From an uncultured Acidobacteriota bacterium (GTDB taxonomy: Bacteria > Acidobacteriota > Vicinamibacteria > Vicinamibacterales > UBA2999), in the NCBI GenBank assembly GCA_963735875.1, contig CAVTMO010000010.1:27095-91094 (forward strand): a stretch of 64,000 bases of DNA, given 5' to 3'. Below the pieces are notes generated by a model. It was not told where the DNA came from. It saw only the letters and a list, made by a program, of their open reading frames with translations, and searched no databases. Each line of letters starts with the position of its first letter. Within the stretch, counting starts at the first letter, position 1. Shown piece by piece: positions 3,125 to 64,000 of this stretch. The position numbers were made by a program, and so were the translations under genes.

Positions 3125-4451
3125 CTACTCGACGTCCTTGCCCGCCGTCCCGCTCGGGACGTCCGCCAGGCCCGACCGGACCATGTAGCCATAGAGCGCG
3201 ACGCCCGGCAGCGCGATGAGCGTGGTCAGCAGGTAGAAGTTCACGTAGCCCATGGCCTCGATGAGCCCGCCTGCCGTGGTGCCAGTCAGGAATCGCCCGG
3301 CGATGCTGGCCAGCGCCGAGAGCAGCGCGTACTGCGTGGCGGTGTAGCGAAGGTTGCACAGCGCCGACAGGTAGGCCACGACGGCGACACCGCCGATGCC
3401 GCTGGCGAAGTTCTCGAATCCGATGGCGACGGCCATCCCGATGTTGCTGTGGCCGTAGCCGGCCAGGGCCGCGAAGCTGAGGTTCGATACGGCCATCAGC
3501 ACCAGGCTGACGAACACCGACCGCTTCATGCCGATGGCCGCATACATCGCCGCGCCGACGAAGACCCCCGCCAGCAGCGCCGCGAAGCCGATGCCCACGT
3601 CGTAGAACGCGATCTCGTCGTTGCTGAACCGCAGGTCCTCGAACAGCAGGCGCAGCGTGAGGTTGGCCAGGGTGTCGCCGATCTTGTGGATCAGCACGAA
3701 GGCCAGGACCACCAGCGCACCGGGGCGACGCAGGAACTCTGTGAGCGGGCTGAAGAAGGCGACCACGCGCCTCGACGATACCGCTGGGCGGCGCGGGCGG
3801 ACGACGACGGACGGGTTCCCCCATCACGACGCCCACGATCATGGCCGGCAGTGCGAACAGCGCACACACGGCATAGGCGGCCGCCCAGCCGTAGCGCGCG
3901 GCGATCACCAGGGCCACGGCGCCGGCTGACGCCGAGCCGATGCGCCAGCCGTACTGCGACATGCCCGAGCCCACGCCGAGCTGGCGCGGCTCCAGCAACT
4001 CGATGCGGTAGGCGTCGATGACGATGTCGAAGGTGGCGCCGGCAACGCCGACGAGGATGGCGGCAACGGCAACCTGCGGCAGCGCCGAGGCCGGATCCAG
4101 GCTGCCGAGGTAGATGACCGCGCCCATCACCAGCACGCCGACGAACCACAGCCATGAACGCCGCTGACCGAACCGGCCGACCACCGGCAGGCGCACGGTG
4201 TCGACCAGCGGTGCCCACAGGAACTTGAAGTTGTAGGCGAGAAACGTGAACGCGAAGGCCGTCACCGCGCTCTTCCGGACGCCGTACTGGGCGAGGCGTG
4301 TCGTCAGCGTCGCGGCGATCATCGCAAAGGCGAAGCCGGATGACACGCCGAGGAATGCCGCGGCGAGCGGCGCCGCCTCGAGGTACGGCCGCACGCCCTC
4401 GCGCAGCCGGCCGGACCAGGCGGCCGGCGCCGTCGCGGTGGGCGGGGTCAT
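3125..4451 (-). CDS. ampG: AmpG-like muropeptide MFS permease (frameshift near 3770)
   Basis: KFLWAPLVD, GQRRSWL, ATFDIVIDAYRIE in the first frame; TATQYALLSAL in the second frame. Confidence 0.88.
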
Positions 4452-22395: not shown

Positions 22396-23434
22396 CTAGC
22401 CGCGCGCGACGGTGAGTGCGGTGCGGCGCCGTGGCGCGCCGGTGGTCGAGCGCATGATGAGCGCGTGCGGCAGGGTCACCGAGACCGCGTCCTTGACGTT
22501 GCCGCGCAGGATGTCGAGCAGCAGCCGCACCGTGGCCTCGCCCAGCTCGCGCATCGGCTGCCGGATCGTCGTCAGCGGCGGATCGAGGTACTGCGCGAAC
22601 CGGATGTCGTCGAAGCCGACGACCGAGACGTCGTCGGGCACGGCCAGCCGGCGCTGCCGCACGGTGTGGAGCACGCCGATGGCCATCTCGTCGTTGAAGC
22701 AGAAGATGCCGGTGGGCGGCCGCGCCCCGCCGAGCAGCTGCTCGCCCGCGGCGATGCCCGACTCGATCGAGAAGTCGCCACCGGCAACGGTGATCGTCAC
22801 GCGGCGTCCGGTCGCGGTTGGCGCGGGCCATCGTGCCCTTCATGCGATCGCGGCTGAGCGGGCTGGCCATCGGGCCGGTGACGACGCCGATGTGGCGGTG
22901 TCCCAGCTGGCACAGGTGATCCACCGCCTCGAAGGCCGCCTTGGCGTTGTCGATGTGCACGCTCGGCACCCCCAGGCTGGGGCTGAACTCGCAGCCGTTC
23001 ACCACCGGCGCCTGGCCATGGGGCAGCGACCGCACCAGGCCCGCCGCCGCCTTCGGCAGCCGGTGACCGAGGAAGATCAGGCCGTCGGCTTCGCGGCGCT
23101 GCAGCATGAGCGCGTACTGCTGCTCGCGCTTCTCGTCGTGCTGGGTGTCGCCGAGCAGCACCGAATACCCGGCGCGCTGCGCAGCGCCCTCGATTCCCTG
23201 CAGGATCACCGCGAAGAACGGGTTGGCGATGTCGGGCACGGTGACCAGCAGCTTGCCGGAACGCAGGGTGCGCAGGCTCTTGGCGGCGGCGTTGGGGGTG
23301 TAGCCCAGCGCGTCGATGGCCTCCACGACCGCGGCCCGGGTGGCGGCGTTCACGAGCTCGGGCCGGGTCAGCACCCGCGACACGGTGGCCGTCGAGACTC
23401 CCGCCTCCCGTGCCACGTCCCGAATCGTCGCCAT
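22396..23434 (-). CDS. LacI-family transcriptional regulator (frameshift near 22800)
   Basis: ATIRDVAREAGVSTATVSRVL HTH; VPDIANPFF; FNDEMAIG, VSVVGFDDI, PPLTTIRQP in the second frame. Confidence 0.93.
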
Positions 23435-31779: not shown

Positions 31780-33908
31780 GTGATTGGCCGCGCCCGTGTC
31801 TGGTTGGCCGGCCTTGCGATCGCTGTCGCCGCGGCGGTGGTGACGACGGCCGGCAGACAGGCTCCCTCGCCGGCCGCGTCGGAGTGGCGGGTCTACGGCG
31901 GATCGGCGGCCAGCGACCGCTACTCGCCGCTGGTCGAAATCACCCCGGCCAACGTCGACCGGCTCGACGAGGCGTGGCGCTTCGACACCGGGGAGACCGG
32001 CGGCTTCCAGGTCAACCCCATCGTCGTGCACGGCGTGCTCTACTCGCCGACCCCCAACCACCGCGTCGTCGCGCTCGACGCGGCGACCGGACGGCTGCAG
32101 TGGACGTTCGACTCGAAGCTCGAGAGCCGGGGCCCCAATCGCGGCGTCACCTGGTGGGAAAGCGGCGACGAGCGTCGCCTGTTCGTGGCCGCCGACCAGT
32201 ACCTCTATGCGCTCGACGCCCGAACAGGGACACCGATCACCGGGTTCGGCGACCAGGGCCGCATCGACCTGCGCCGCGACCTCGGCCGGGATCCCGCGTC
32301 GCAGTCGATCCGGCTGACCACGCCCGGCATCGTCTACCAGGACCTGCTCATCATCGGCGGGAGGGCCGGAGAAGGCGCCGGATCGTCGCCGGGCGACATC
32401 CGCGCGTACGACGTCCGTAGCGGGAGCCTGAAGTGGGCCTTTCGCACCATCCCGCGGCCCGGCGAGTCCGGCTACGAGACGTGGTCCGAGACGTCGTGGC
32501 AGGTCAACGGCGGCGCCAACAACTGGGCGGGCATGGCGCTCGACGAGGGGCGCGGGATCGTCTTCGTGCCCACCGGCTCGGCGGCGCCGGATTTCCACGG
32601 CGCCGATCGTGTCGGCGACAACCTGTTCGCCAACTGCCTGCTGGCACTCGATGCCGCGACCGGCCGACGGATCTGGCACTTCCAGGCGGTCCATCACGAC
32701 ATCTGGGACCGCGACTTCCCTCCCCGCCCACACTGGTCACCGTGCGACGCGACGGCCGCGTCATCGATGCCGTGGCACAGACCACCAAGCACGGCTTCGT
32801 CTTCGTCCTCGACCGCGAAACCGGCGCGCCGCTGTTTCCGATCGAGGAGCGGGCGATGCCGCCCAGCCGCGTGCCAGGCGAGCGGGCGTCGCGCACGCAG
32901 CCTCTGCCGCTGGCCCCCGAGCCGTTCGCCCGCCAGCGGCTCACTGCGGACCTGTTGACCCGGCGGACGCCCGACGCGCACGCCTGGGCGTCGGCGGCGT
33001 TCGCGAAGCTGTACAGCGACGGGCCGTTCGCCCCGCTGCGGGTCGGCCAGGACACGGTGGTGTTCCCCGGATTCGACGGCGGCGCCGAATGGGGTGGCAG
33101 CGCGTTCGATCCGGCCTCTGGCCGGCTGTTCGTCAACGCCAACGACCTGGCGTGGACCGGGGCACTGGCGCCCGACGACAGCGGCGGTGACGGACGCAGC
33201 GTCTACCTCAACGCCTGCGCGTCCTGCCATCGCGACGACCGGCGCGGCACGCCGCCGCAGATTCCGGCCCTCACCAACCTCACGCTGACGGCCGAACGGC
33301 TGACGACGGTCATTCGCGACGGCCTTGGGCGCATGCCCGGCTTCCCGCGTCTCCCGCCGGAAGCGGTGCGCACCCTCGTCGCCTATCTGATGGACACGCC
33401 CGGTCACGGCGACGGACCGGCAGCGGCCGCCGCCACCGCCCCGTCGGCGACACCCACGGGGCGCCTTCGTTTCACCGGCTACCGGAAGTTCCTCGACCCG
33501 GATGGCTACCCGGCGGTCGCCCCGCCGTGGGGCACGCTGAGCGCCATCGACTTGAACACCGGCGCCTATGCGTGGAAGATTCCGCTCGGGGAATATCCGG
33601 AGCTGGTCGCGCAGGGCGTGACCGACACCGGATCGGAGAACTACGGCGGACCGATCGTCACGGCGGGCGGCGTGCTCTTCATCGGCGCGACCAACTTCGA
33701 CCGGAAGTTCCGCGCCTTCGACACCGCCACCGGCCGCCTGCTGTGGCAGGTGACGCTGCCGTTTGCGGCCAACACGACGCCGGCCACTTACCAGGTGCAG
33801 GGCCGCCAGTACGTGGTCGTGGCCGCGGGCGGCGGCAAGTCGCGCGATCCGTCCGGCGGGATGTTCATCGCCTATCGCCTTCGACCAGATGCTGAGAGAG
33901 GCAGGTAA
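31780..33908 (+). CDS. PQQ-dependent glucose dehydrogenase-family protein with internal cytochrome c domain (frameshift near 32720)
   Basis: RYSPLVEITPANV, ALDAATG, HHDIWDRD, PGFDGGAEWGG, heme motif CASCH with GRMP, PPWGTL, GGPIVTAGG. Confidence 0.88.
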
Positions 33909-39086: not shown

Positions 39087-40617
39087 GCGCGGCCTTTGTC
39101 CGGCCTGGCCGACGTCTCGTGACCCTCGTAGGTGGGCACCCCGGTGAGCACGCCGCGGAACTCGCGCAGCGGCGCCCCGATGGTGATGCAGCCGGCATCG
39201 AGGCGGAAGTCGCGCAGGGTCCGCTCGTGCCGGCTGCCGCGCTTCTTCATCACCGAGATGGCCTGCCGCACCTCGCCCTGGCTCTCGAAGTAGCGCAGCA
39301 GGATCACCGCGTCGGCCAGGTAGGTGGCATCGACCGGCGTCGTACATCTGGGCGCCGATGAGCCCCTGATGCGCCCCGATCAGGATCGTCGCGACGCCTT
39401 TCTGGCCGAGGTACATCAGCAGCTCGTGCAGCTGAATGATGAGATGCCGCTCTTCGGGCATGGCGTTGAGGTAGCCGTTCAGGCTGTCGATGACGACGAC
39501 CTTGGCGTTGCGCTCCTCCACCGCCGTGCGGATGGCGTGGACGAATTCGCCCGGCGTGAGCTCGGCCGGGTCGACCTGCCGCAGCGAGACCAGGCCGGCG
39601 TCGAGCTGGCTCTCGAGGTCGACGCTCAACTGCCCGCACCGGGTGAGCAGCGTCACCGGGCTCTCGTCGAAGATGAACAGCGCGGCGTGCTGTCCGCGCT
39701 TGGCGGCGGCGACGGCGAACTGGGCGGCCAGGGTGGACTTGCCGGTGCCGGCGGCGCCGACGATGAGGGTGCTCGTGCCTTCTTCGATGCCGCCGCCCAG
39801 CAGCGCGTCGAGCTCGGGGATGTCGCTGCGCAGCTTCACGCGGGAGGTAGTCTGCCGGTGTTCGGCGGCAACCAGCCGCGGAAACACCCGCAGTCCGCCG
39901 AAATCGATGCACGAAGTCGTGGTAGCCGCCGCGGAACTTCACGCCCCGGTACTTCACGACGCGCAGCCGGCGCCGCTCGGTGCCGTACTCGGGATTGAGC
40001 TGCTCGAGCAGGACCACGCCGTGGGCGATGCTCTGCATCTGCAGGTCGTGGTCGGTCGCCGTCAGGTCGTCGAGCAGCACCACCGTGCAGTCCCTGGTGG
40101 AGAAGAACTGCTTCAGCGCCAGGATCTGCCGGCGGTAGCGCAGCGCAGTGCCGGCGAGGAGCCGCAGCTCCGACAACGAGTCGAACACCACCCGGGTCGG
40201 CTTCAGCCGTTCGACATCGGTCAGAATCAGCTTCATCGTCGACGCGAGCTCGAGCTCGGCCGGATGGAACATCGTGTTCTGTTCGTCGGGGTCGAGGTCG
40301 GTCTCGGACGGCACGAGCTCGCGAATGCTGACGCCGTCGAGGCGCCAGCCGTGCGATTCGGCGACCGACCGCAGTTCCTCTTCGGTTTCCGACAGGGTGA
40401 CGTAGAGCACGGTCTCGCCGTTGGCGGCGCCCGCCATCAGGTACTGCATCGCCAGCGTGGTCTTGCCGGAGCCGGGTACTCCTTCGACGAGATAGAGCCG
40501 CCGGCGGGTCAGCCCTCCGGCCATGATGTCGTCGAGGCCCGGGACACCGGTGGAGGCAACAGACCGAGGTACCGGCGCCACAGGCTCACTCAAGACCGTT
40601 ATCCAATCGCCGCACAC
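39083..40617 (-). CDS. kaiC: KaiC-like double RecA-domain ATPase (two frameshifts)
   Basis: [23 protein letters not shown]; second domain [42 protein letters not shown]. Confidence 0.85.
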
Positions 40618-54225: not shown

Positions 54226-54426
54226 ATGGCGACCAACCTGGCGCTCGACGAGAAGCTTCTGGAGGAGGCGTTACGCATCGGCGGAAAGGCCACGAAGAAG
54301 GATACCGTGACCGAGGCGCTGCAGGAGTACATCGGCCGCCGGAAGCAGGCCCGCGTCGTCGACCTCTTCGGCACCATCGACTACGAACCGAAACACGACT
54401 ACAAGAAGCAGCGCCGGCGGCGATGA
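54226..54426 (+). CDS. vapB: VapB antitoxin
   Basis: MATNLALDEKLLEEA...TKKDTVTEALQEYI, ribbon-helix-helix type; ATGA overlap with the PIN gene. Confidence 0.9.
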   Translation: MATNLALDEKLLEEALRIGGKATKKDTVTEALQEYIGRRKQARVVDLFGTIDYEPKHDYKKQRRRR

Positions 54427-54826
54427 AGGTCCTGGTCGACACCTCGGTCTGGTCGCTGGCCTGCGGCGGCGCGCACCGGCCCACGCGGCTGTCGATGAGC
54501 TTCGCCGGCTGGTGGCGAGTGGACGAGCGGCGCTCGTCGGCCCGGTGCGGCAAGAGCTGCTCTGCGGGATTCGCGATCAGGCGGACTTTTCGCGCCTGCG
54601 GGATCACCTCAGGGCGTTTCCCGACGAGCCCATCGCCACCGGCGACTACGAACGCGCCGCCGAGTGCTTCAATTTGTGCCGGGTGAAGGGCGTCCAGGGT
54701 TCGAACACCGACTTCCTGCTGTGCGCGGTGGCCGAACGACACGGGCTGCCGATCCTGACCACCGACGAAGACTTCGCGCAGTTCGCCCGGGTACTGCCGA
54801 TCGCCCTGCATTCGCTGCGCCACTGA
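54423..54826 (+). CDS. vapC: VapC PIN-domain toxin (frameshifted)
   Basis: MKVLVDTSVWS, QELLCG, TDFLLCAVA, ILTTDEDF. Confidence 0.88.
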
Positions 54827-56049: not shown

Positions 56050-56876
56050 ATGTCGAGTTACAGCCCGGCGGCGGAGGGATGGCAGGTCGACGGCGACGGC
56101 GCCGACGCTTACGAGCGATACCTGGGGCGCGCCTTCGTGCCCTGGGCCCGGCGCCTGGTCGAGCAAGCCGAGGTACAGCCAGGGGATCGCGTGCTCGACG
56201 TGGCGTGCGGCACCGGCGTGGTGGCACGGCAGGCGGCGGCGCGAGTCGGCCCGACCGGGCAGGTCGTCGGCCTCGACATCAACGACGACATGTTGCGCGT
56301 GGCCCGAACGACTACGGCGGCGGTCGCACCGGCGCATCGAGTGGCGACAGGGCAACGTCGCGAGCCTGCCCTTCCCCGCCGCCAGCTTCGATGCCGTGGT
56401 CTGCCAGCAGGCGTTCCAGTTCTTCGCCGATCCCGTCGCCGCCGCGCGGGAGATCGGCCGCGTGGTGAAGAAGGGCGGACGCCTGGCCGTCAGCGTGTGC
56501 CGGCCGATCCGCTTCGCGCCGACCTATGTCGCGCTGGCCGACGCTGCTGCACCGCCATGTGGGCAGCGACGCGGGCGCCATGATGCGATCGCCCTTTGCG
56601 CCGTGGACCACCGCGGAGTTCCGCGCGCTGTTCACGGCGGCGGGATGGACGTCCGTGCGGGCGACGATCGAGGTCTGGCCGCTGCGCTACCCGTCCTCGG
56701 ACGAGTTCCTCCGCCAGGAAGCCTCGAGCTCGCCGCTGGCCGGCCCGATCGACGCGCTGGAGCCCGAGCGGCGCGACGCTCTGCTTCGCGATCTCGCCGC
56801 GGCCGTCGCCGATCACGTGGACGACGACGGCGTCGCCTGTCCGATCCAGGTGTATGTCGGCGTCGGGCATCGATGA
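56050..56876 (+). CDS. UbiE-like SAM-dependent methyltransferase (two frameshifts)
   Basis: AGGAGG RBS; RVLDVACGTG, GLDIN, LPFPAASFDAVVCQQ; divergent from the AraC gene. Confidence 0.85.
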
Positions 56877-56996
56877 GGCCCGAAACGTCACGGGACGCGG
56901 GCGGCCATCGTGACCGCCGCCACGACCGATTTCGCAGTCGCGGGGAATTTTCCGCTCGCCGGCGTCCCGACACGCGCCGACGCGGTGCCCGGACCC

Positions 56997-57012
56997 AGGC
57001 TCACGTCTTGCA
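56997..57012 (+). promoter_or_regulatory. Sigma54 promoter
   Basis: AGGCTC-ACGTC-TTGCA, GG-N10-GC; GGGGAATTTTCCGC at 56942-56955 upstream. Confidence 0.5.
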
Positions 57013-57023
57013 CTGCCCTGGTC

Positions 57024-57897
57024 GTGGGTCCATCTGCGTTTGCTATCGTCGTCGCGGTGCTGCTGCTGTTGGTGGTCGCTAACTACTGGTTCACGAAGGG
57101 ACCGCGCAGCTTCCGGGCACGGTTCGACCACGACGTGGCGGCGGGTCTGGCACGTCAGAGCCCGACAGCCGTGGTGACGGAGCAGGATCTCGTCCGCCTT
57201 CCCCCGCCGGTCGGACGATACCTTCGCGCTCTCGGCGTTGTCGGACAGCCCGCGATCCGGCACTACCGGCTGCGCTTCACCGGCCGCATCCGCAGCACGC
57301 CCGACTCGCCATGGATGCCGTTCGAGGCCGACCAGCACAGCTTCACCGACCCGCCAACCCGGCTGTTCCTGATGCGCGCGACGATGTCGGGCCTGCCGGT
57401 GATCGTCTTTCACCGCCTGGCCGGCGGTCACGCGACGATGCAGGTCAAGCTGGCCGGCGCGATTCCGATCGTCGATGCCAGCGGCCCGGAAATGGACCAG
57501 TCGGAGACGGTCACGCTGTTCAACGACATGTGCCTGCTGGCGCCCGCGACGCTGATCGATCCGCGCATTGCCTGGGATGAGGAGAGCGACCGAAGTCGTG
57601 CGCGCCAGGTTCACCCACGGCGCGCACACGATCGCCGCCACCCTGGAGTTCGGCGACGACGGCCGGCTCGTCAACTTCGTGTCCGACGACCGCTCGCGGG
57701 CGTCATCCGACGGCCGGTCGTTCACCCGCCTGCGCTTCTCGACGCCGGTCCGCGACTATCGGGACTTCGGCGCGATTCGCGTCGCGGCTCACGGCGAGGC
57801 GCGGTGGCGACTCCCCGAGGGCGAGTTCACCTACGGCGAGTTCGACATCGAGGACATCGCCTACAACGACGACCCAGGCGGCGGTCAGAAGCGGTAG
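57024..57897 (+). CDS. DUF6544-family membrane-anchored protein (frameshift near 57590)
   Basis: TM, then DL..LPPPVGRYL, WMPFEADQ, GPEMDQSETVTLFND, FVSDDR. Start GTG 57024 (or 56910). Confidence 0.75.
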
Positions 57898-60077
57898 GTC
57901 AGGCGGACGAACCCCACGTGGGCGGTGTAGGGCCGATACAGGTAGCCGAGCAACAGCGCGTTGGTGGCAACCACCGGCTGGCCCTCCTGTACCGGGGGCA
58001 AGGCGATGCCGGTCAGCGTCGTCGGTCCCAGCGCGAAGTCCTCCACTTGGTAGTCTTCGAACCAGTAGCTCACGCCGGCGAGCAGGTTGCGGGACAGCTC
58101 GTAGGTGAGGTCGATCTCGCCGCGGAACAGCTCGTTCTTCACCGGGGGCAGCTGCTCGGGCGTCGCCAGCGGCGATCCCGTGACCAGGCCGTAGAGATAG
58201 GTGTCGTTCGACCGGTTCCAATCCACCGTCAGCCGCATCAGCGTGCGGGCGATCGCGCCGTTCACGTCCACAGCGGCTTCGAGGTAGTTCACCTTGCCGG
58301 CATAGTCGGTCGTCCAGTCGCGCAGCGGATTGGCCTGATCGGCCGCCGTCGTGGCACTGCGTGAGCGCTGCAGCGATCGATACCGTTCCCAGCCGTAGCT
58401 CGCCGACAGCTGGTAGCGATCGTCGGGCGTCACCGAGACGCCGGCCGAGTACTGGTTCGAGTCGTAGGACTGCAGGCCGTGCGGGCTGTCGGGATAGTCG
58501 TCCCGGCCCACCCCGGCCGAGGCGGTCACGCCGAAGATCCCGCCGGGGATCAGGTTGGCGACCAGCCACAACCGCTGGCGATCGCGGTCGGCAACGTCGA
58601 AGTGGCGCATGCCAGCCAGCTCGCCCACTTCCTCCAGCACCTCGGGCTCGAAGTGATCGCCGGTGCGGCTGCGGTTCTCGTAGATGGCGCGCACCGTCAC
58701 CAGCTGGTGGCCGGTGAGGTCGGTCGACACCCGGAACACGTCCTCGGCGGTGGTCTCCCAGATGCGATGCGTGTAGTCGGAGCCAAGATGGCTGTAGCCC
58801 AGCTTGACTGCGGTCGAGGGCAGCACCTGCACGGCGGCATCGGCGTCGAAGGTGACGCGCTTGACGCTGAAGTACTCCGAGGATGCTGCGGTGGGCGTGA
58901 ACGATGAGTCGTAGGCCACCGAACCGCCGGGCCGATCGAACACGGGGGTGTCGGCATCGACGTTCGAGTAGCGATACCTGGCGTTGATCGACAGTGGCCG
59001 GACGGGACGCGTCGCCAGCGTCAGCTGGGCGATCGACATCTGGTGCTCGGCCTGGGCGGTGGGGCGCGACAGTGGGATGGGTGCGAACGCTGTGTTGATC
59101 GTGTAGGGCAGAAGGTCGGCGTCGCTGCGACCGCGGCCGAGCGCCACGTAACCGGTGAGCCGGCCGCGCAGGGGAACGCTGACGGCGCCGGTGCCGTGCA
59201 GGTAGGTGAGCGTGTTGGCCGGCCAGAGCGCCATGCGCCCCTGCGACGGGGTGCCGACGATGTCGGGACCAAAGCGCAGCGGGTTGTCCCAGATGGCGCT
59301 GTCGGTGTCGGGTTCGTAGCTCGATCCGTCCCAGCCGATGCGCAGCATTCCCGACTGGTTGCCCCATTCGAGCGCGGTCTGGACGTCGGCGGTCCGGCTG
59401 TCAACGGGCACTGGCAGCTCGACGGCGTTGTTGAAGCCGAAGGTACCGCCGAAGGGGATGGCGCCCGTCCGGGAGGTGCCTCGCACCTTGACCACGATAT
59501 CGGTCGAGCGGTCGGCATTGAACACGATGTCGGCCTGGCCAATCTTGCGCATGGTCCTCAGCTCGAAGCCCACCGCCTGGTCTTCGAAGTCGCGCAGGGT
59601 CTTCGTGCCGCTCTGGATGGCCTGCTGCGTCGCGTCCTCGATGCGGAACACTCCGGCGGCCGGCTGTGTGTAGAGCGTACGGGTGTCGCCGCTGATGAAC
59701 AGCGGAATCTGATCCCAGAGGAACGTCGCCGACAGCCGGCCGGCGCGCTGGACGTCGAGCTGGTAGCGCTGATCGCGATAGCCCACGTTCCAGGCCTGCG
59801 CCTCGACCACCCAGTCCTGGGTGCGGCGCCCGGCCAGCATGTTCGTGCCGTAGATGCCGCTGCGCAGGTCGCGATAGCGCTGGAAGCGCGCTTCGTCGCC
59901 GTCGACATTGCTGATGCGGCCGCCGAAGTCCACGGCGCCGTAGACCCGGCCGCTCAATTCGCTCCGGCCGACCGCCACCGGATCGGTGGGCGCCGGCAGC
60001 GAGGGCGGTTCCTGTGCGGTCGCGGTGCCGGCCGCGAGCACGACGAGGAGGGCCGTCAGCATGGTCCGGGTCTGCAC
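57885..60077 (-). CDS. MtrB/PioB-family decaheme-associated outer-membrane porin
   Basis: AGGAGG RBS and GTG 60077; signal peptide; about 730 aa amphipathic beta-strand protein with RFQRYRD, ELPVPVD, WDNP, FDVADRDR, terminal YRF; directly after the decaheme gene. Confidence 0.88.
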   Translation of the reverse strand: MQTRTMLTALLVVLAAGTATAQEPPSLPAPTDPVAVGRSELSGRVYGAVDFGGRISNVDGDEARFQRYRDLRSGIYGTNMLAGRRTQDWVVEAQAWNVGYRDQRYQLDVQRAGRLSATFLWDQIPLFISGDTRTLYTQPAAGVFRIEDATQQAIQSGTKTLRDFEDQAVGFELRTMRKIGQADIVFNADRSTDIVVKVRGTSRTGAIPFGGTFGFNNAVELPVPVDSRTADVQTALEWGNQSGMLRIGWDGSSYEPDTDSAIWDNPLRFGPDIVGTPSQGRMALWPANTLTYLHGTGAVSVPLRGRLTGYVALGRGRSDADLLPYTINTAFAPIPLSRPTAQAEHQMSIAQLTLATRPVRPLSINARYRYSNVDADTPVFDRPGGSVAYDSSFTPTAASSEYFSVKRVTFDADAAVQVLPSTAVKLGYSHLGSDYTHRIWETTAEDVFRVSTDLTGHQLVTVRAIYENRSRTGDHFEPEVLEEVGELAGMRHFDVADRDRQRLWLVANLIPGGIFGVTASAGVGRDDYPDSPHGLQSYDSNQYSAGVSVTPDDRYQLSASYGWERYRSLQRSRSATTAADQANPLRDWTTDYAGKVNYLEAAVDVNGAIARTLMRLTVDWNRSNDTYLYGLVTGSPLATPEQLPPVKNELFRGEIDLTYELSRNLLAGVSYWFEDYQVEDFALGPTTLTGIALPPVQEGQPVVATNALLLGYLYRPYTAHVGFVRLTYRF

Positions 60078-60088
60078 GGTGGGCCTCC

Positions 60089-61044
60089 TCACTGCCGCAG
60101 GAAGGTCGAACCGGCCGGGTGGTTCGAGCCGTGGATGGCCGAATGGCAGGTCACGCACGACCGGCCGTAGAGGCGGTTGCTGGTCTGCAGGACCTTGCCG
60201 TCGTAGATCGTCGAGGGATGGCGCGTGTGGTTGTGGCAGCGCTGGCACAAGAACGGCAGTTTGGCGACCAGCATCCGGTCGTTGTTCGAGCCGTGCGGGT
60301 CGTGGCAGGTGGCGCAGCTGTCGCCGCTGATGCCGGCGTGCTCGAACAGGTAGGGCCCGCGCTTCTCGGCGTGGCAGCTCGAGCACGCCTCGTTGATCGA
60401 ATTGCCCGTCTTCAGCAGCCGCACGTTGGTCGCGCCGTGCGGGTTGTGGCACGACGAGCACTCCATCTTGCCCTCGCGTACCGGCATGTGGCCGGAGCGA
60501 TCCAGCTTGGCCACCTTGTCGCGGTGGCAGGACATGCACTGCTGCTGCTGATCGACCGTCTTCAGCTGCGCCTTGGCTGACTTCGGCCGGTGCACGCTGT
60601 GGCAGCTGACGCACGACACGTTGCGCGCCTCGTGCTGGCTGCCCTTCCACAGCGCATGCGGTCCACGATTGTGGCAGGTCGCGCAGGCGTCGGTTACCGC
60701 CCGGGCCGGGATCCGATCGAACTGCACCGGCTTGACGTTCTCGGGATCGCTGGCGTGCGCCTCCCCCGGCCCGTGACAGGTCTCGCACCCTGAGCCGCCG
60801 CGGGCGTTCGCGGATCCTGCGCCTGGCCGTGCCTCGATGACCGGATCGAGGCGTCGTAGCCGGTGTGGCAGGTCGCGCAGGTCTCGGCGCCGACGTAGCC
60901 CGCTGGCGGCGTCGGCGGCGCCGTCTGGGCCTGGCCGCCGCCGGCGGCCATCGTCTCGACCGGCGTCGCCTGCATCGAGCGGGTGCCGATGACGCCGGCC
61001 AGCAGCACCGCCGCCACTACGTTCAGAACCGCGACTGGACGCAT
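60089..61044 (-). CDS. MtrA/PioA/DmsE-family decaheme cytochrome c (frameshift near 60790)
   Basis: Signal peptide; adding one G at CAG-GG(G)-TGC gives 10 CxxCH (CATCH, CETCH, CATCH, CVSCH, CMSCH, CSSCH, CSSCH, CATCH, CQRCH, CVTCH); family motifs EKRGPYLFEH and IHGSNHP. Confidence 0.93.
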
Positions 61045-61054
61045 GGCTCGCCTT

Positions 61055-62392
61055 CTACGGCATGTCGTGGCATGTCTGACAGTCCTGCTGAATGGCCCTG
61101 CCGTCGGCCGTCTTGTGGTTGTCGTCGTGACAACGGAAGCAGCCCGGAAAGGCCACATGACCGATGTTGTTCGGATAGGTGCCCCAGCCGACCCTCATCG
61201 CCGGGAACACGTTGCGGGCATAGACGCCCTGGACGCCGGCGATCATGCGGGCCAGCGACGGCGCCTCGGCGGGATAAGCCTCACGCATCGCCCGCTCGAT
61301 CCCGGTCATCGCCGCCTGTCGTGAGTCGAACGAGGCCTGCAGCGCCGCCACCGCTTGGCGTCGGGCGAACGGCAGATCCCTGGGAATCTGTCCGCGCGCG
61401 ATGGCGGCGTCCACGGCCCGCTCCGGACCGGAGTCGAAGGTGTGGGCCGGGCGGTTGTGGCAGTCCATGCAATCCATCAGGCGGTGCTCGCCGGCCGCCA
61501 GCGTCGCCGGCGTCGTGCCGGCGACCACGTACTCGGTGACGCGGCCGTCGCGATCGGTGAACTTGACCCACGGAATCGTCTGGCGCTCCGCATCGAGGGC
61601 GATGTACTCGACGCGGTTGTCGATGTTCATGTGCCAGTGGATGCCGCTGCCGGATCCGGCCTGGCCGCCGCCGACGTGGAGCTGCAGGGTCGTCACCGTC
61701 TCGGAGCTCTTCTCGTCGTCGGCGTACTCGCGGATCTGCCGCAGGGTGTCGCCGTGCATCTTCTCGGGCCAGTGGCAGTTGGCGCAGGTGTCGCGGGCCG
61801 GCCGCATCGACCGTACCGGAGCGGGCACCGGTGCCGGGACGTTGCCGGTGAGCAGGTGCCACAACTGCCGGGTGCCGGCCAGCTTCGCTTCGACCTGTGC
61901 CTCGGCGCCGGGACCGACGTGGCACGACACGCAGGAGACCCTGGCGTGCGCACCTACCTGATAGGCGGTGTATTCCGGCTCCATCGTCGTGTGGCAGGTG
62001 GTGCCGCAGAACGCCGCCGACTCCATGTGGTGCACCGCGCCGTAGGCGGCCAGCGAGAAGATGATCACGTTGACCAGCGTGAGCAGGGTCACGCCGAAGA
62101 GGAGCGTGCGTGTCCGCGGCCGCCGCAGATCGATCACCGGCCAGTCTTCTGGCAGTTGGCCCAGGGCGAGCAGCCGGCGGCGCCGCCAGATGCCGAGCGG
62201 GATCAGGAGCAGCCCGAGCAGGAACACCGCTGGCACGGCCACGAACAGCAGCAGTCCCAGGTAGGGATTACGCAGCAGGCCGCCGACCTCGAGCGCCAGC
62301 AGCACCAGGAACAGCACGGCCATCGCCGTGGCGATCGCCGCGCCGACGAGGCTGGTCGGGTTCCGCGCCGCGGATGGCAGGTCGATGCGCAT
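61055..62392 (-). CDS. NapC/NirT-family 3-TM multiheme cytochrome c (ImcH-like)
   Basis: Three TM segments (NPYLGLL...); hemes CGTTCH (CX3CH), CVSCH, CANCH, CMDCH, CFRCH, CQTCH; 445 aa from ATG 62392. Confidence 0.85.
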   Translation of the reverse strand: MRIDLPSAARNPTSLVGAAIATAMAVLFLVLLALEVGGLLRNPYLGLLLFVAVPAVFLLGLLLIPLGIWRRRRLLALGQLPEDWPVIDLRRPRTRTLLFGVTLLTLVNVIIFSLAAYGAVHHMESAAFCGTTCHTTMEPEYTAYQVGAHARVSCVSCHVGPGAEAQVEAKLAGTRQLWHLLTGNVPAPVPAPVRSMRPARDTCANCHWPEKMHGDTLRQIREYADDEKSSETVTTLQLHVGGGQAGSGSGIHWHMNIDNRVEYIALDAERQTIPWVKFTDRDGRVTEYVVAGTTPATLAAGEHRLMDCMDCHNRPAHTFDSGPERAVDAAIARGQIPRDLPFARRQAVAALQASFDSRQAAMTGIERAMREAYPAEAPSLARMIAGVQGVYARNVFPAMRVGWGTYPNNIGHVAFPGCFRCHDDNHKTADGRAIQQDCQTCHDMP

Positions 62393-62403
62393 CGCCGGCC
62401 GCG

Positions 62404-62757
62404 CTACGGCTTCTTCTGGGCGAGCAGGTAGGCGACCAGCGCGTCGAGATCGTCCTTGGGCAGGTTGGGGTAGGCGCGCATCACCGGCTTGCGCGTGGCG
62501 TTGGCCTTGGCGGTCATCTCGGCGGGATTGACGATCCACTGCCGGATCTCGTCGGCGCTGAGCTTCGAGCCGACGTCGTCGAGCGGGCCCTTGGCCTGGC
62601 CCTTGCCCTCCAGCGAGTGGCAGATCGAGCACTTCTGGGCCGCGTACACCACGGCGCCGCGAGCGGCATCGGCGGCCGCCGGGGCCTGCGTCGCCGCGCT
62701 CGCCGGTCGGCACTGACCAAACACGACCAACACCAGGAGGCACATCGCTCGGGTCAT
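62404..62757 (-). CDS. Periplasmic monoheme class I cytochrome c
   Basis: Signal peptide, RGAVVY...CSICH, WIVNP, candidate distal Met in PVMRAY, LVAYL. Confidence 0.88.
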   Translation of the reverse strand: MTRAMCLLVLVVFGQCRPASAATQAPAAADAARGAVVYAAQKCSICHSLEGKGQAKGPLDDVGSKLSADEIRQWIVNPAEMTAKANATRKPVMRAYPNLPKDDLDALVAYLLAQKKP

Positions 62758-62827
62758 CGGCTTCTCCGCTCCTTCCGCTGTCGACCGGGTCGTGCGCGAG
62801 CGTGACAACCGGTCGGGGTGGGGCTTC

Positions 62828-62892
62828 AGCAAATCACGGACAGCGACTCGAATTCAGCGGGAAAGAATCCCCAGAGCGCGGACGTTTCCCCA
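62828..62892 (-). promoter_or_regulatory. Imperfect sigma54 promoter with two upstream GGGGA...TCC(C)GC sites
   Basis: CTGTCC-GTGAT-TTGCT lacks the -25 G (one dropped G would give TGGTCC-N5-TTGCT); TGGGGATTCTTTCCCGCT and TGGGGAAACGTCCGCG upstream. Confidence 0.4.
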
Positions 62893-62900
62893 CGGCGACT

Positions 62901-64000
62901 TCAGGGAAGCAAGAGAAGGGCTCCGCCAACCGCCACGAGCATCAGCGCCAGCGCGCCGCCGGCAATTGCCCGGAACCTCTGACCGCCCAGGAAGACCGCC
63001 AGCCCCAGTTTCATCGCCGTATTCGCCAGCACCCCAATCGCGATGGCGGTGGCGGCGACAGCCGGCGAGACCGTCTGCGCAACGCCCCTCGCCATCGACA
63101 CCGTGAGGGCGTCCACGTCAGTGAGTCCGAGGACCGCCGCCGACGTGAACACGCCGGATTGTCCCCACACCGCCCTGACCAGGTAGACGGCCATCAGCAC
63201 CGCCTGGAAGAGGATGGCCATCTGAAGCGCCGCAGCCAGTTGGAGCGGATTGTGCTGCGGGACTTCACGCGTTCCAGCCTCCGGGTCGCGGCGGGTCCCC
63301 AGGGCAGCCACGAGCGCCGCCACCAAGGCGGGCGCGGCGAGATAGGGAACGAGCGGCGGGACTACCGCCGCGTTGAGTATGGCCGTGGCGACCAACACTC
63401 GCGGATAGAGCATGGCATTCGCGGCCACAGCCCCGAACGCAAGAGCGCGATCCGCCGTCGGCTCGCTCCGGCTGATTCGCGCGAAGGTGAACGTCACGTT
63501 GGTGGACGATACCAGGCCCCCGAGCAGTCCAGCGACGAGGTAACCATGGCCCGGACCGGCAACACGACGCGCCACGTACCCGGCGAAACTCAACCCCGAA
63601 AAGAACAGGACCAGCGCCCATAGCTCGCGGGGCCGAATCCCGCCAAGCGGACCGAACGGCCCTTCCGGAAGCAATGGCAGGACGACGAGGGCCATGACGG
63701 CGAATCGCACGCCCGACTGCAGATCCACATCGTCGATCCGCTGCACCAGCGCGTGCAGCCGCGATTTCTCGACCAGCAGCAAGGCGACGAGGGCGATGAT
63801 GCCGCTCGCGAGCCGGATCGCTCCCATGCCGGCGAGCAGACCGGCAGCCAACACCACGAGGGCCGCGACCTCCGTCGTCCCGTCGATATCGTGCCGACTG
63901 CCGGCAACGTAGGCCGCGGCCACGACCGCAACGGCTCCGGCGAACAGGATCGCCGCCGGCGCGGTGATGCCGGCGGCCCACAACCATCCGCTGAATCCAC
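62901..64000 (-). CDS. MgtC/SapB-DUF4010 membrane protein; 5' end outside the window
   Basis: DGTTEVAAL, LPLLP.GP, GLLGGLVSST, LGLTDVDA, ANTAMK. Confidence 0.88.
   Translation of the reverse strand, partial: GFSGWLWAAGITAPAAILFAGAVAVVAAAYVAGSRHDIDGTTEVAALVVLAAGLLAGMGAIRLASGIIALVALLLVEKSRLHALVQRIDDVDLQSGVRFAVMALVVLPLLPEGPFGPLGGIRPRELWALVLFFSGLSFAGYVARRVAGPGHGYLVAGLLGGLVSSTNVTFTFARISRSEPTADRALAFGAVAANAMLYPRVLVATAILNAAVVPPLVPYLAAPALVAALVAALGTRRDPEAGTREVPQHNPLQLAAALQMAILFQAVLMAVYLVRAVWGQSGVFTSAAVLGLTDVDALTVSMARGVAQTVSPAVAATAIAIGVLANTAMKLGLAVFLGGQRFRAIAGGALALMLVAVGGALLLLP

Follow-up and report, generated by a model that had tools for sequence, protein, structure and literature searches.

The closest described relatives of the gene cluster reported here are the Mto system of Sideroxydans lithotrophicus ES-1, PioABC of Rhodopseudomonas palustris, MtrCAB with CymA of Shewanella, and ImcH of Geobacter sulfurreducens (GSU3259). 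In Sideroxydans, an MtrC-less decaheme cytochrome and an MtrB/PioB-type porin are accompanied by an inner-membrane cytochrome of NapC/NirT homology, the tetraheme ImoA, and by a monoheme periplasmic carrier of about 10 kDa; a 2026 study reports that the His/Met monoheme PmcA (-143 mV) binds both ImoA and MtoA, and that the bis-His MtoD (+155 mV) binds neither (PMC13390432). ImcH has been described as a protein with three putative helices, NapC/NirT homology and seven heme motifs, the first of them CXXXCH (Levar et al.; PMC4251993), and Geobacter needs it for high-potential acceptors (PMC4251993; PMC6295460). Here, we describe an operon that appears to unite relatives of these parts, namely a monoheme cytochrome c, an ImcH-type hexaheme cytochrome, an MtrA-type decaheme cytochrome and an MtrB/PioB-type porin. 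It lies in a 64,000-nucleotide stretch of DNA (the window) from an uncultured soil acidobacterium of the Vicinamibacterales (contig CAVTMO010000010.1 of assembly GCA_963735875.1). We suggest, with a probability of roughly 0.55, that the operon encodes an MtrC-less conduit of the Mto/Pio kind, equipped with a quinol/quinone cytochrome of the ImcH type and a PmcA-like shuttle with one heme, and with outward electron flow slightly favored.

The likeness to Sideroxydans Mto extends to the MtrC-less decaheme and porin, the NapC/NirT-homology inner-membrane cytochrome and, by description, the PmcA-like carrier. The two systems differ in that the inner-membrane partner in the window has three transmembrane helices and six hemes, unlike the tetraheme ImoA, and in that its carrier gene belongs to the operon, the gene for PmcA standing apart from mto. 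Nor does the window carrier resemble MtoD, having a single His and lacking MtoD among its solved-structure matches, and no RuBisCO was found in its host. As in PioABC, a single operon of the window encodes a decaheme and a porin together with a small carrier of the periplasm and lacks a surface cytochrome, but the carrier is a HiPIP there and a c-type cytochrome here, and the window operon adds an inner-membrane partner. PioA also carries a long N-terminal extension that the window decaheme lacks. In comparison with Shewanella MtrCAB/CymA (6R2Q), both the MtrA and the MtrB homologs are present, but MtrC/OmcA, the porin CxxC, CymA and a tetraheme shuttle of the STC/FccA type are missing from the window system.

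The hexaheme protein is probably a member of the ImcH family, and its sequence supports this well. It matches the NapC/NirT N-terminal region (PF03264, 39.1 bits against a cut-off of 24.1) and has hydrophobic segments at residues 15-33, 46-64 and 97-115, which were called as transmembrane helices with a simple Kyte-Doolittle window rather than a dedicated predictor. A CX3CH motif (CGTTCH) follows at residue 129, 14 residues past the third helix, and then five CXXCH motifs. This architecture, which the original prediction had likened to that of ImcH, does match the published descriptions (PMC4251993; PMC6295460). The wider ImcH family is defined by three helices, one CX3CH and 5-9 CX2CH motifs (Zhong and Shi, 2018; PMC6295460); with five CX2CH motifs and 445 amino acids, the window protein lies within this range but outside the Geobacter group, whose members have six such motifs, seven in all, and 495-519 amino acids (PMC6295460). 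All six heme motifs are invariant across 32 aligned homologs from several phyla, as are His149, His252, His254, His317, His412 and Met137. Relatives are numerous (7594 proteins at E ≤ 1e-5 among 8000 scored candidates, and 756 clusters at 50% identity with E ≤ 1e-30), and among the best 150 of these representatives, 67 have the 1 + 5 motifs of the window and 31 the 1 + 6 motifs of Geobacter ImcH. P0160, a homolog of 498 amino acids with 1 + 6 motifs, shares 40% identity with the window protein (E 2.1e-102), and its cluster includes a protein labelled Desulfuromonadales by NCBI; published identities between the Geobacter group and other ImcH groups are 31.5-49% (PMC6295460). NrfH is its only relative of solved structure (2j7a_C, 2.5e-5, residues 100-213), and a search of the ESM Atlas with the homolog P0027 returned NapC/NirT-named clusters only. 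Whereas imcH of Geobacter is monocistronic, the window gene, the only PF03264 match in its genome, shares an operon with genes for a cytochrome c and MtrAB.

The first of these neighbors matches the class I cytochrome c profiles (PF00034, 42.9 bits; PF13442, 35.4 bits) and contains one His and four Met in the whole 117-residue protein. Because there is a single His, bis-His ligation is impossible and the sixth ligand is not His, hence His/Met, in agreement with the original prediction. The methionine of a conserved RKPxM(R/K)A motif is the obvious candidate for the sixth ligand, and the mature domain, including this motif, is conserved among relatives. The best relative of solved structure is ACIII subunit A (1.1e-5), and MtoD is absent from the protein's 7 solved-structure matches at E ≤ 0.01. 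The contrast first drawn between a His/Met carrier and MtoD therefore stands as regards ligation, but it loses weight as a distinction from the Sideroxydans system, since the ImoA/MtoA partner PmcA is itself reported to be His/Met (PMC13390432). It follows from the PmcA result that a His/Met monoheme need not be a high-potential carrier, and PmcA provides a close functional model for the operon. The cytochrome c gene lies directly upstream of the ImcH-like gene in other loci as well (L008-L013, L033, L034, L056 and L059), and it accompanies both the ImcH-like gene and mtrAB, as is expected of a shuttle between them.

At the outer membrane, the C-terminal 236 residues of the decaheme protein alone reach 226.9 bits with TIGR03508 (cut-off 192.2) and match MtrA of the solved MtrCAB complex (6r2q_A) at 6.5e-50, query residues 2-232 aligning with 97-330 of the chain and hemes 2-10 with their counterparts. 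If read through, the protein would have about 318 amino acids, the length of MtrA (the 6r2q_A chain has 333), and it is the only MtrA in the genome. The porin matches PF11854 at 245.5 bits (cut-off 23) over positions 3-635 of the 635 in the profile, which upholds its proposed place in the MtrB/PioB family; its direct match to 6r2q_B is weak (4.1e-5), and PF11854 matches nothing else in the genome. The porin gene directly follows the decaheme gene, with a gap of 11 nucleotides, and the same pairing recurs in 13 loci. A GTG start 6 nucleotides after GGAGG gives 730 amino acids, and an alternative ATG at 60062 would give 725. The N-terminal CxxC was correctly noted as missing, there being 0 Cys in the entire protein. 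On the profile scores for PF00034, PF03264, TIGR03508 and PF11854, all four of the family assignments made at the outset hold.

The four genes form one operon. All four run along the minus strand, from 62757 to 57885, and are separated by 11, 10 and 11 nucleotides; this tight spacing is accompanied by ribosome-binding sites (Table 1). The counts in the original prediction (four co-oriented genes, 10-11-bp gaps, 1 + 6 + 10 heme motifs and a 730-amino-acid barrel) are all correct, as is its description of the next gene, DUF6544, as convergent. The G+C content is close to 70% over the whole region. The upstream intergenic region presumably contains a promoter, and a sigma-70 consensus scan of 57500-63300 returned 0 sites. 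The same scan found one terminator-like site, on the wrong strand, which is no more than in shuffled sequences.

A key finding from our comparative analysis is that the association of an ImcH-like gene with mtrAB extends well beyond the window. Loci with an ImcH-like protein come mostly from acidobacterial metagenome-assembled genomes (MAGs), several of them Vicinamibacterales or Vicinamibacteria, and also from Ignavibacteriota, Bacteroidota, Calditrichota and more; the record titles of L056 and L035, Bifidobacteriaceae and Patescibacteria group, probably reflect mis-binned or mislabelled MAG contigs. Both mtrA and mtrB are present in 13 of the 80 loci retrieved with the ImcH-like protein, and the four nearest loci (71-76% identical) have the same four-gene order. 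A tree of 81 ImcH-like proteins places 13 of the 14 rows adjacent to mtrB within a single clade of 20 rows (SH-aLRT support 99); the adjacency label requires at least 3 changes on the tree, and 0 of 500 shuffles were as clustered. In a sample of 121 genomes of the family, an ImcH-like protein was found in 72 and MtrB in 81. In 44 of the 72 ImcH-like-bearing genomes, the two genes share a contig and are no more than 6 kb apart (within 2.5 kb in 43), and these 44 comprise 28 with the order of the window and an mtrA-sized gap, 9 with mtrB upstream and 7 with the genes on opposite strands. Both genes are present but unlinked in 26 of the 72, many of these assemblies being fragmented, and 2 of the 72 have no MtrB match. 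These tallies include two unpublished genomes, and without them linkage stands at 43 of 70.

The same data bear on whether the cytochrome c-ImcH pair might be mainly a quinol:cytochrome c oxidoreductase for an aerobic chain, its adjacency to mtrAB being a secondary fusion with a loose functional link. We regard this as improbable, since the retention of linkage by 44 of 72 genomes, through several orders of the genes and both strand arrangements, argues for selection on proximity, and more distant ImcH-like genes lie in other decaheme clusters. It would nevertheless account for the genomes in which both genes are unlinked, for L014 and L019, which have an ImcH-like gene and no MtrB within 4.5 kb, and for a lone cytochrome c-imcH pair (77% identical) on contig C3 (L099) of a genome from the same genus, G198, separate from that genome's mtrAB cluster.

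Further arrangements were seen around the more distant or variant loci. Terriglobia-type loci (L024:2570-10552 and L028:571-10512) hold a more distant ImcH-like protein (about 46% identical) in a larger cluster together with an MtrA-like decaheme and a protein of 650-870 amino acids without a Pfam match, possibly a porin. These two clusters also encode a CbcL-like protein (multiheme plus a cytochrome b561 domain), so that both Geobacter-type inner-membrane cytochromes stand side by side. In some relatives, an extra frame with 11, 9 or 7 heme motifs lies next to the cluster (L016:4834-6129, L018:4541-6082, L021:4698-6890, L059:8393-10288, L034:7389-8837 and L009:9536-10534). This extra frame, which might encode a periplasmic or surface partner, is missing from the window and from its nearest relatives L008 and L011.

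The hybrid put forward in the original prediction is, on these results, not a rare one: with 44 of 72 ImcH-like-bearing family genomes linked, it is a clade-wide module, and similar clusters are in print (PMC13264449). The 2018 survey by Zhong and Shi reported no case of mtrAB/mtoAB neighboring imcH (PMC6295460). Baker et al. (2022) reported MtrCAB in Bryobacterales-type Acidobacteriia and one member of the Gemmatimonadetes and discussed MtrC-less cores (PMC8805035), and a 2023 network study lists PioA and PioB homologs in Acidobacteria (PMC10654088). For karst "ghost-rocks", a MAG study from 2026 recognized a group of 8 porin-cytochrome clusters whose decahemes are small and whose porins have 25-36 strands, and it reads its clusters as outward (PMC13264449). 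Its "Group 2" clusters share with the window, by description, a small decaheme beside such a porin; that paper covers them in one sentence and does not analyze their ImcH-type partner, monoheme or distribution (PMC13264449). In the literature searched, figures and supplements aside, the ImcH-mtrAB arrangement is thus mentioned in one paper and uncharacterized (PMC13264449).

The absence of a surface cytochrome is the second feature on which our reading depends. The genome is estimated to be 80% complete, and absences from it are provisional. Its best score with the MtrC profile TIGR03507 is 18 bits against a cut-off of 209.3, and in the family sample the profile is exceeded in 1 of 121 genomes, leaving 80 of the 81 MtrB-bearing genomes without it; the original prediction of a conduit with no MtrC is borne out to this extent. 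A standard MtrCAB system, with the gene for an MtrC-like surface cytochrome at another locus or in the fifth of the genome that is unassembled, therefore seems very improbable. The search for such a partner in the genome found none that reached the TIGR03507 cut-off, although a pentaheme protein of 565 amino acids on contig C18 barely passes PF22113 (31.1 against 30 bits). We rejected this protein as an MtrC, since the PF22113 hit is generic, MtrA itself scoring 33.9 bits.

The other multiheme open reading frames (ORFs) of the genome look like an ACIII/Qrc-type pentaheme and assorted small or TPR-linked cytochromes. The C18 locus is of interest in its own right. A protein of 411 amino acids (genome G000, L093:3173-4408, plus strand) has a class I cytochrome c domain at residues 66-159, followed by about 250 residues without a Pfam match and an aromatic-rich tail, and may be a fusion of a cytochrome with a small barrel; directly next to it (L093:4411-6108, plus strand) is the 565-residue pentaheme, which has weak ExtKL similarity (36 bits). 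The pair could represent a second, different outer-membrane electron module. A genome search did not find RuBisCO, and one heme-copper oxidase is present. The nearest records belong to Acidobacteriota and Vicinamibacterales, which, together with the failure to find RuBisCO, agrees with the acidobacterial, heterotroph-like host that had been proposed. Vicinamibacteria are generally aerobic heterotrophs with menaquinone.

Whether the conduit is made at all depends on the decaheme gene, in which the ten CXXCH motifs are split 1 + 9 over two frames; relatives carry all ten motifs in a single frame. The window reads CAGGG-TGC where 4 of 4 aligned relatives have CAGGGNTGC, that is, CAGGG(A/C/G/T)TGC. 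The base it lacks is the wobble base of a Gly codon and would follow a GGG run immediately. A soil-metagenome contig about 92% alike, from a relative, has an extra base after 60787. Among public sequencing runs, none contained more than 0.18 of the sequence words, and the four runs examined yielded relatives' contigs only, no listed piece of which covers the full stretch. A codon-position scan of the 5.45-Mb assembly returned 392 candidate in-gene frame switches over 4598 coding segments, a density of 7.2 per 100 kb with an even distribution among all the large contigs, compared with 1 switch in 320 kb of high-G+C loci from other assemblies (0.3 per 100 kb, about 23-fold lower), these control loci having been sorted into two kinds by the look of their contig names only. 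The count is heuristic, and it missed the mtrA break, whose 82-codon N-terminal part is below the score threshold. In Pfam searches, 4 of 4 scorable candidate pairs were consecutive parts of one family (PQQ dehydrogenase, KaiC, LacI and DUF6544); in a fifth pair, MFS (3813-4409 and 3128-3745), the second part has no Pfam match. Breaks also lie near the operon, with at least 4 further ones in neighboring genes within 7 kb. DUF6544 is split by an indel near 57590, with PF20181 positions 2-142 in one frame and 148-221 in another, as an alignment with L008 also indicates, and a methyltransferase at 56050-56521 is, according to Pfam, frame-split too.

Given the in-frame relatives, the genome-wide frame switches and the split neighbors, the decaheme break is, with high confidence, best explained as an assembly indel, and the system is probably intact in the cell. 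That the deletion is real and the operon a recent pseudogene in this strain, making no conduit, appears quite improbable. The deletion is present in the assembly and the runs examined, with relatives' contigs only, do not contradict it, but the rest of the gene and its three neighbors are full-length, 71-89% identical to relatives and free of further defects, and the site follows a homopolymer in an assembly with the elevated density of breaks described above. Programmed frameshifting was also considered and rejected, relatives being in frame at this site. The 80% completeness of the genome may partly reflect the same indel errors. In G198, too, mtrA is split over two frames. At 54226-54826 of the window (plus strand) are a VapB antitoxin (PF09957, 62.5 bits) and a PIN-domain VapC whose match begins at profile position 36; the N-terminal part of VapC apparently falls in a different frame and, if so, would mark one more indel.

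Table 1. Positions of the operon, its boundaries and examples of split genes in the window.
Feature	Position	Strand	Remarks
Upstream intergenic region	62758..62900	-	143 nucleotides after the DUF4010 stop; Shine-Dalgarno-like GGAAGGAGCGGAG precedes the cytochrome c ATG
Class I monoheme cytochrome c	62404..62757	-	117 amino acids, one CSICH, Sec signal ending ASA
ImcH-type hexaheme cytochrome	61055..62392	-	445 amino acids, three transmembrane helices, one CX3CH and five CXXCH
DmsE/MtrA decaheme	60089..61044	-	Two frames: 82 codons (heme 1), then 236 codons (hemes 2-10)
Frameshift site in decaheme	60787..60790	-	One base missing between 60788 and 60787
MtrB/PioB porin	57885..60077	-	730 amino acids, GTG start, Sec signal, 0 Cys
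DUF6544 boundary gene	56910..57897	+	Outside the system; convergent; 13-nucleotide overlap with the mtrB end
Split-gene example	31909-32709 / 32748-33851	+	
Split-gene example	39922-40473 / 39351-39863 / 39095-39328	-	
Split-gene example	22811-23389 / 22459-22785	-	
Split-gene example	56050-56340 / 56345-56521	+	
Split-gene example	57255-57563 / 57613-57888	+	

Gene order, protein families, motifs and linkage are observed; which proteins touch, which quinone serves them and which way the electrons run, we infer as follows. That the operon encodes a conduit that links the quinone pool with the outer face of the outer membrane is, in our view, quite probable. The ImcH-type cytochrome, held by its three-helix anchor, would exchange electrons with (mena)quinol through an NrfH-like first heme, and the soluble His/Met cytochrome c would ferry them through the periplasm. 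The decaheme MtrA homolog, seated in the MtrB/PioB barrel, would then take electrons across the outer membrane and, because there is no MtrC, its outer heme would contact soluble or chelated substrates directly. The layout is that of Mto and Pio, with an ImcH-type enzyme in place of CymA/ImoA and with the operon itself supplying the PmcA-like monoheme shuttle. As regards direction, we give the outward view an even chance. Perhaps quinol is oxidized and Fe(III), Mn(III/IV) or humic acceptors are reduced when oxygen is short; the ImcH-like gene as the sole NapC/NirT-family gene of the genome fits this view, as does the failure to find RuBisCO.

Several observations weigh against this reading, in whole or in part. 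The window protein has six heme motifs where Geobacter ImcH has seven, and GSU3259 was compared by description only. The porin scores 199.1 bits with TIGR03509, under the cut-off of 240.05, and by its profile is a divergent member of that family. The decaheme gene is broken as assembled. Three genomes of the same genus (G028, G198 and G278) carry cytochrome c, mtrA and mtrB with no ImcH-like gene in the cluster (L096, L097 and L098), so the ImcH link is not obligatory; the window operon has the look of two units, of two or three genes each, that have fused, unless the other arrangements are a split of it. For outward flow in particular, the genome has only 7 ORFs with at least three CXXCH motifs, unlike dedicated metal reducers, and absence of MtrC is typical of Fe(II) oxidizers.

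These last points lend themselves to the opposite direction of flow, in which MtrAB would take electrons from Fe(II), from minerals bearing it or from humics in reduced form, and the cytochrome c would feed a terminal oxidase and, via the ImcH-type protein acting as a quinone reductase, the quinone pool, a form of lithoheterotrophy in an aerobic soil bacterium. An MtrC-less MtrAB is the arrangement of MtoAB and PioAB (PMC8805035; PMC10654088), the MtrC profile exceeds its cut-off in just 1 of 121 family genomes, and the analogous ImoA-PmcA-MtoA chain of Sideroxydans is read as an uptake path (PMC13390432). The small set of multiheme cytochromes and the heme-copper oxidase would suit such a life as well. 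On balance, we consider inward flow the less likely direction, since without RuBisCO in the genome searched, reverse flow for CO2 fixation would have no obvious use; if the quinone is menaquinone, as it is in Acidobacteria, its reduction by Fe(II) would also be uphill. Moreover, ImcH has been implicated solely in quinol oxidation so far (PMC6295460). What probability the two directions leave falls to a conduit that works both ways or neither. A more specific form of the inward proposal, in which the ImcH-type enzyme runs in reverse as the quinone-reducing end of an uptake chain from MtrAB through the His/Met cytochrome c, with an oxidase branch, is slightly less likely again.

It is tempting to speculate on what such an uptake chain would mean. 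If electrons do flow inward, abundant aerobic soil heterotrophs of the Vicinamibacteria type would harvest them from Fe(II) minerals or reduced humics, the window protein would be the first member of the ImcH family in an oxidizing pathway, and, with an MtrB/PioB match in 215 of 401 genomes from an even sample of the class, more than half of the species of the class would carry a lithoheterotrophic uptake module. Annotation tools that equate an MtrC-less MtrAB with iron oxidation would count the entire clade among the iron oxidizers, whichever way its electrons flow. Gene calls and completeness of this assembly should, in addition, be read with its frame breaks in mind.

Levar et al. noted that knowing the interactors of ImcH would greatly aid prediction from sequence (PMC4251993). 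The conserved operon names two concrete candidates, a monoheme cytochrome c and an MtrAB-type conduit, and these are the first partners that conserved gene context offers for a protein of the ImcH type, even though the operon itself is less singular than at first thought. With MtrB/PioB present in 215 of the 401 class genomes, extracellular electron exchange may be routine in what are supposedly ordinary aerobic soil heterotrophs.

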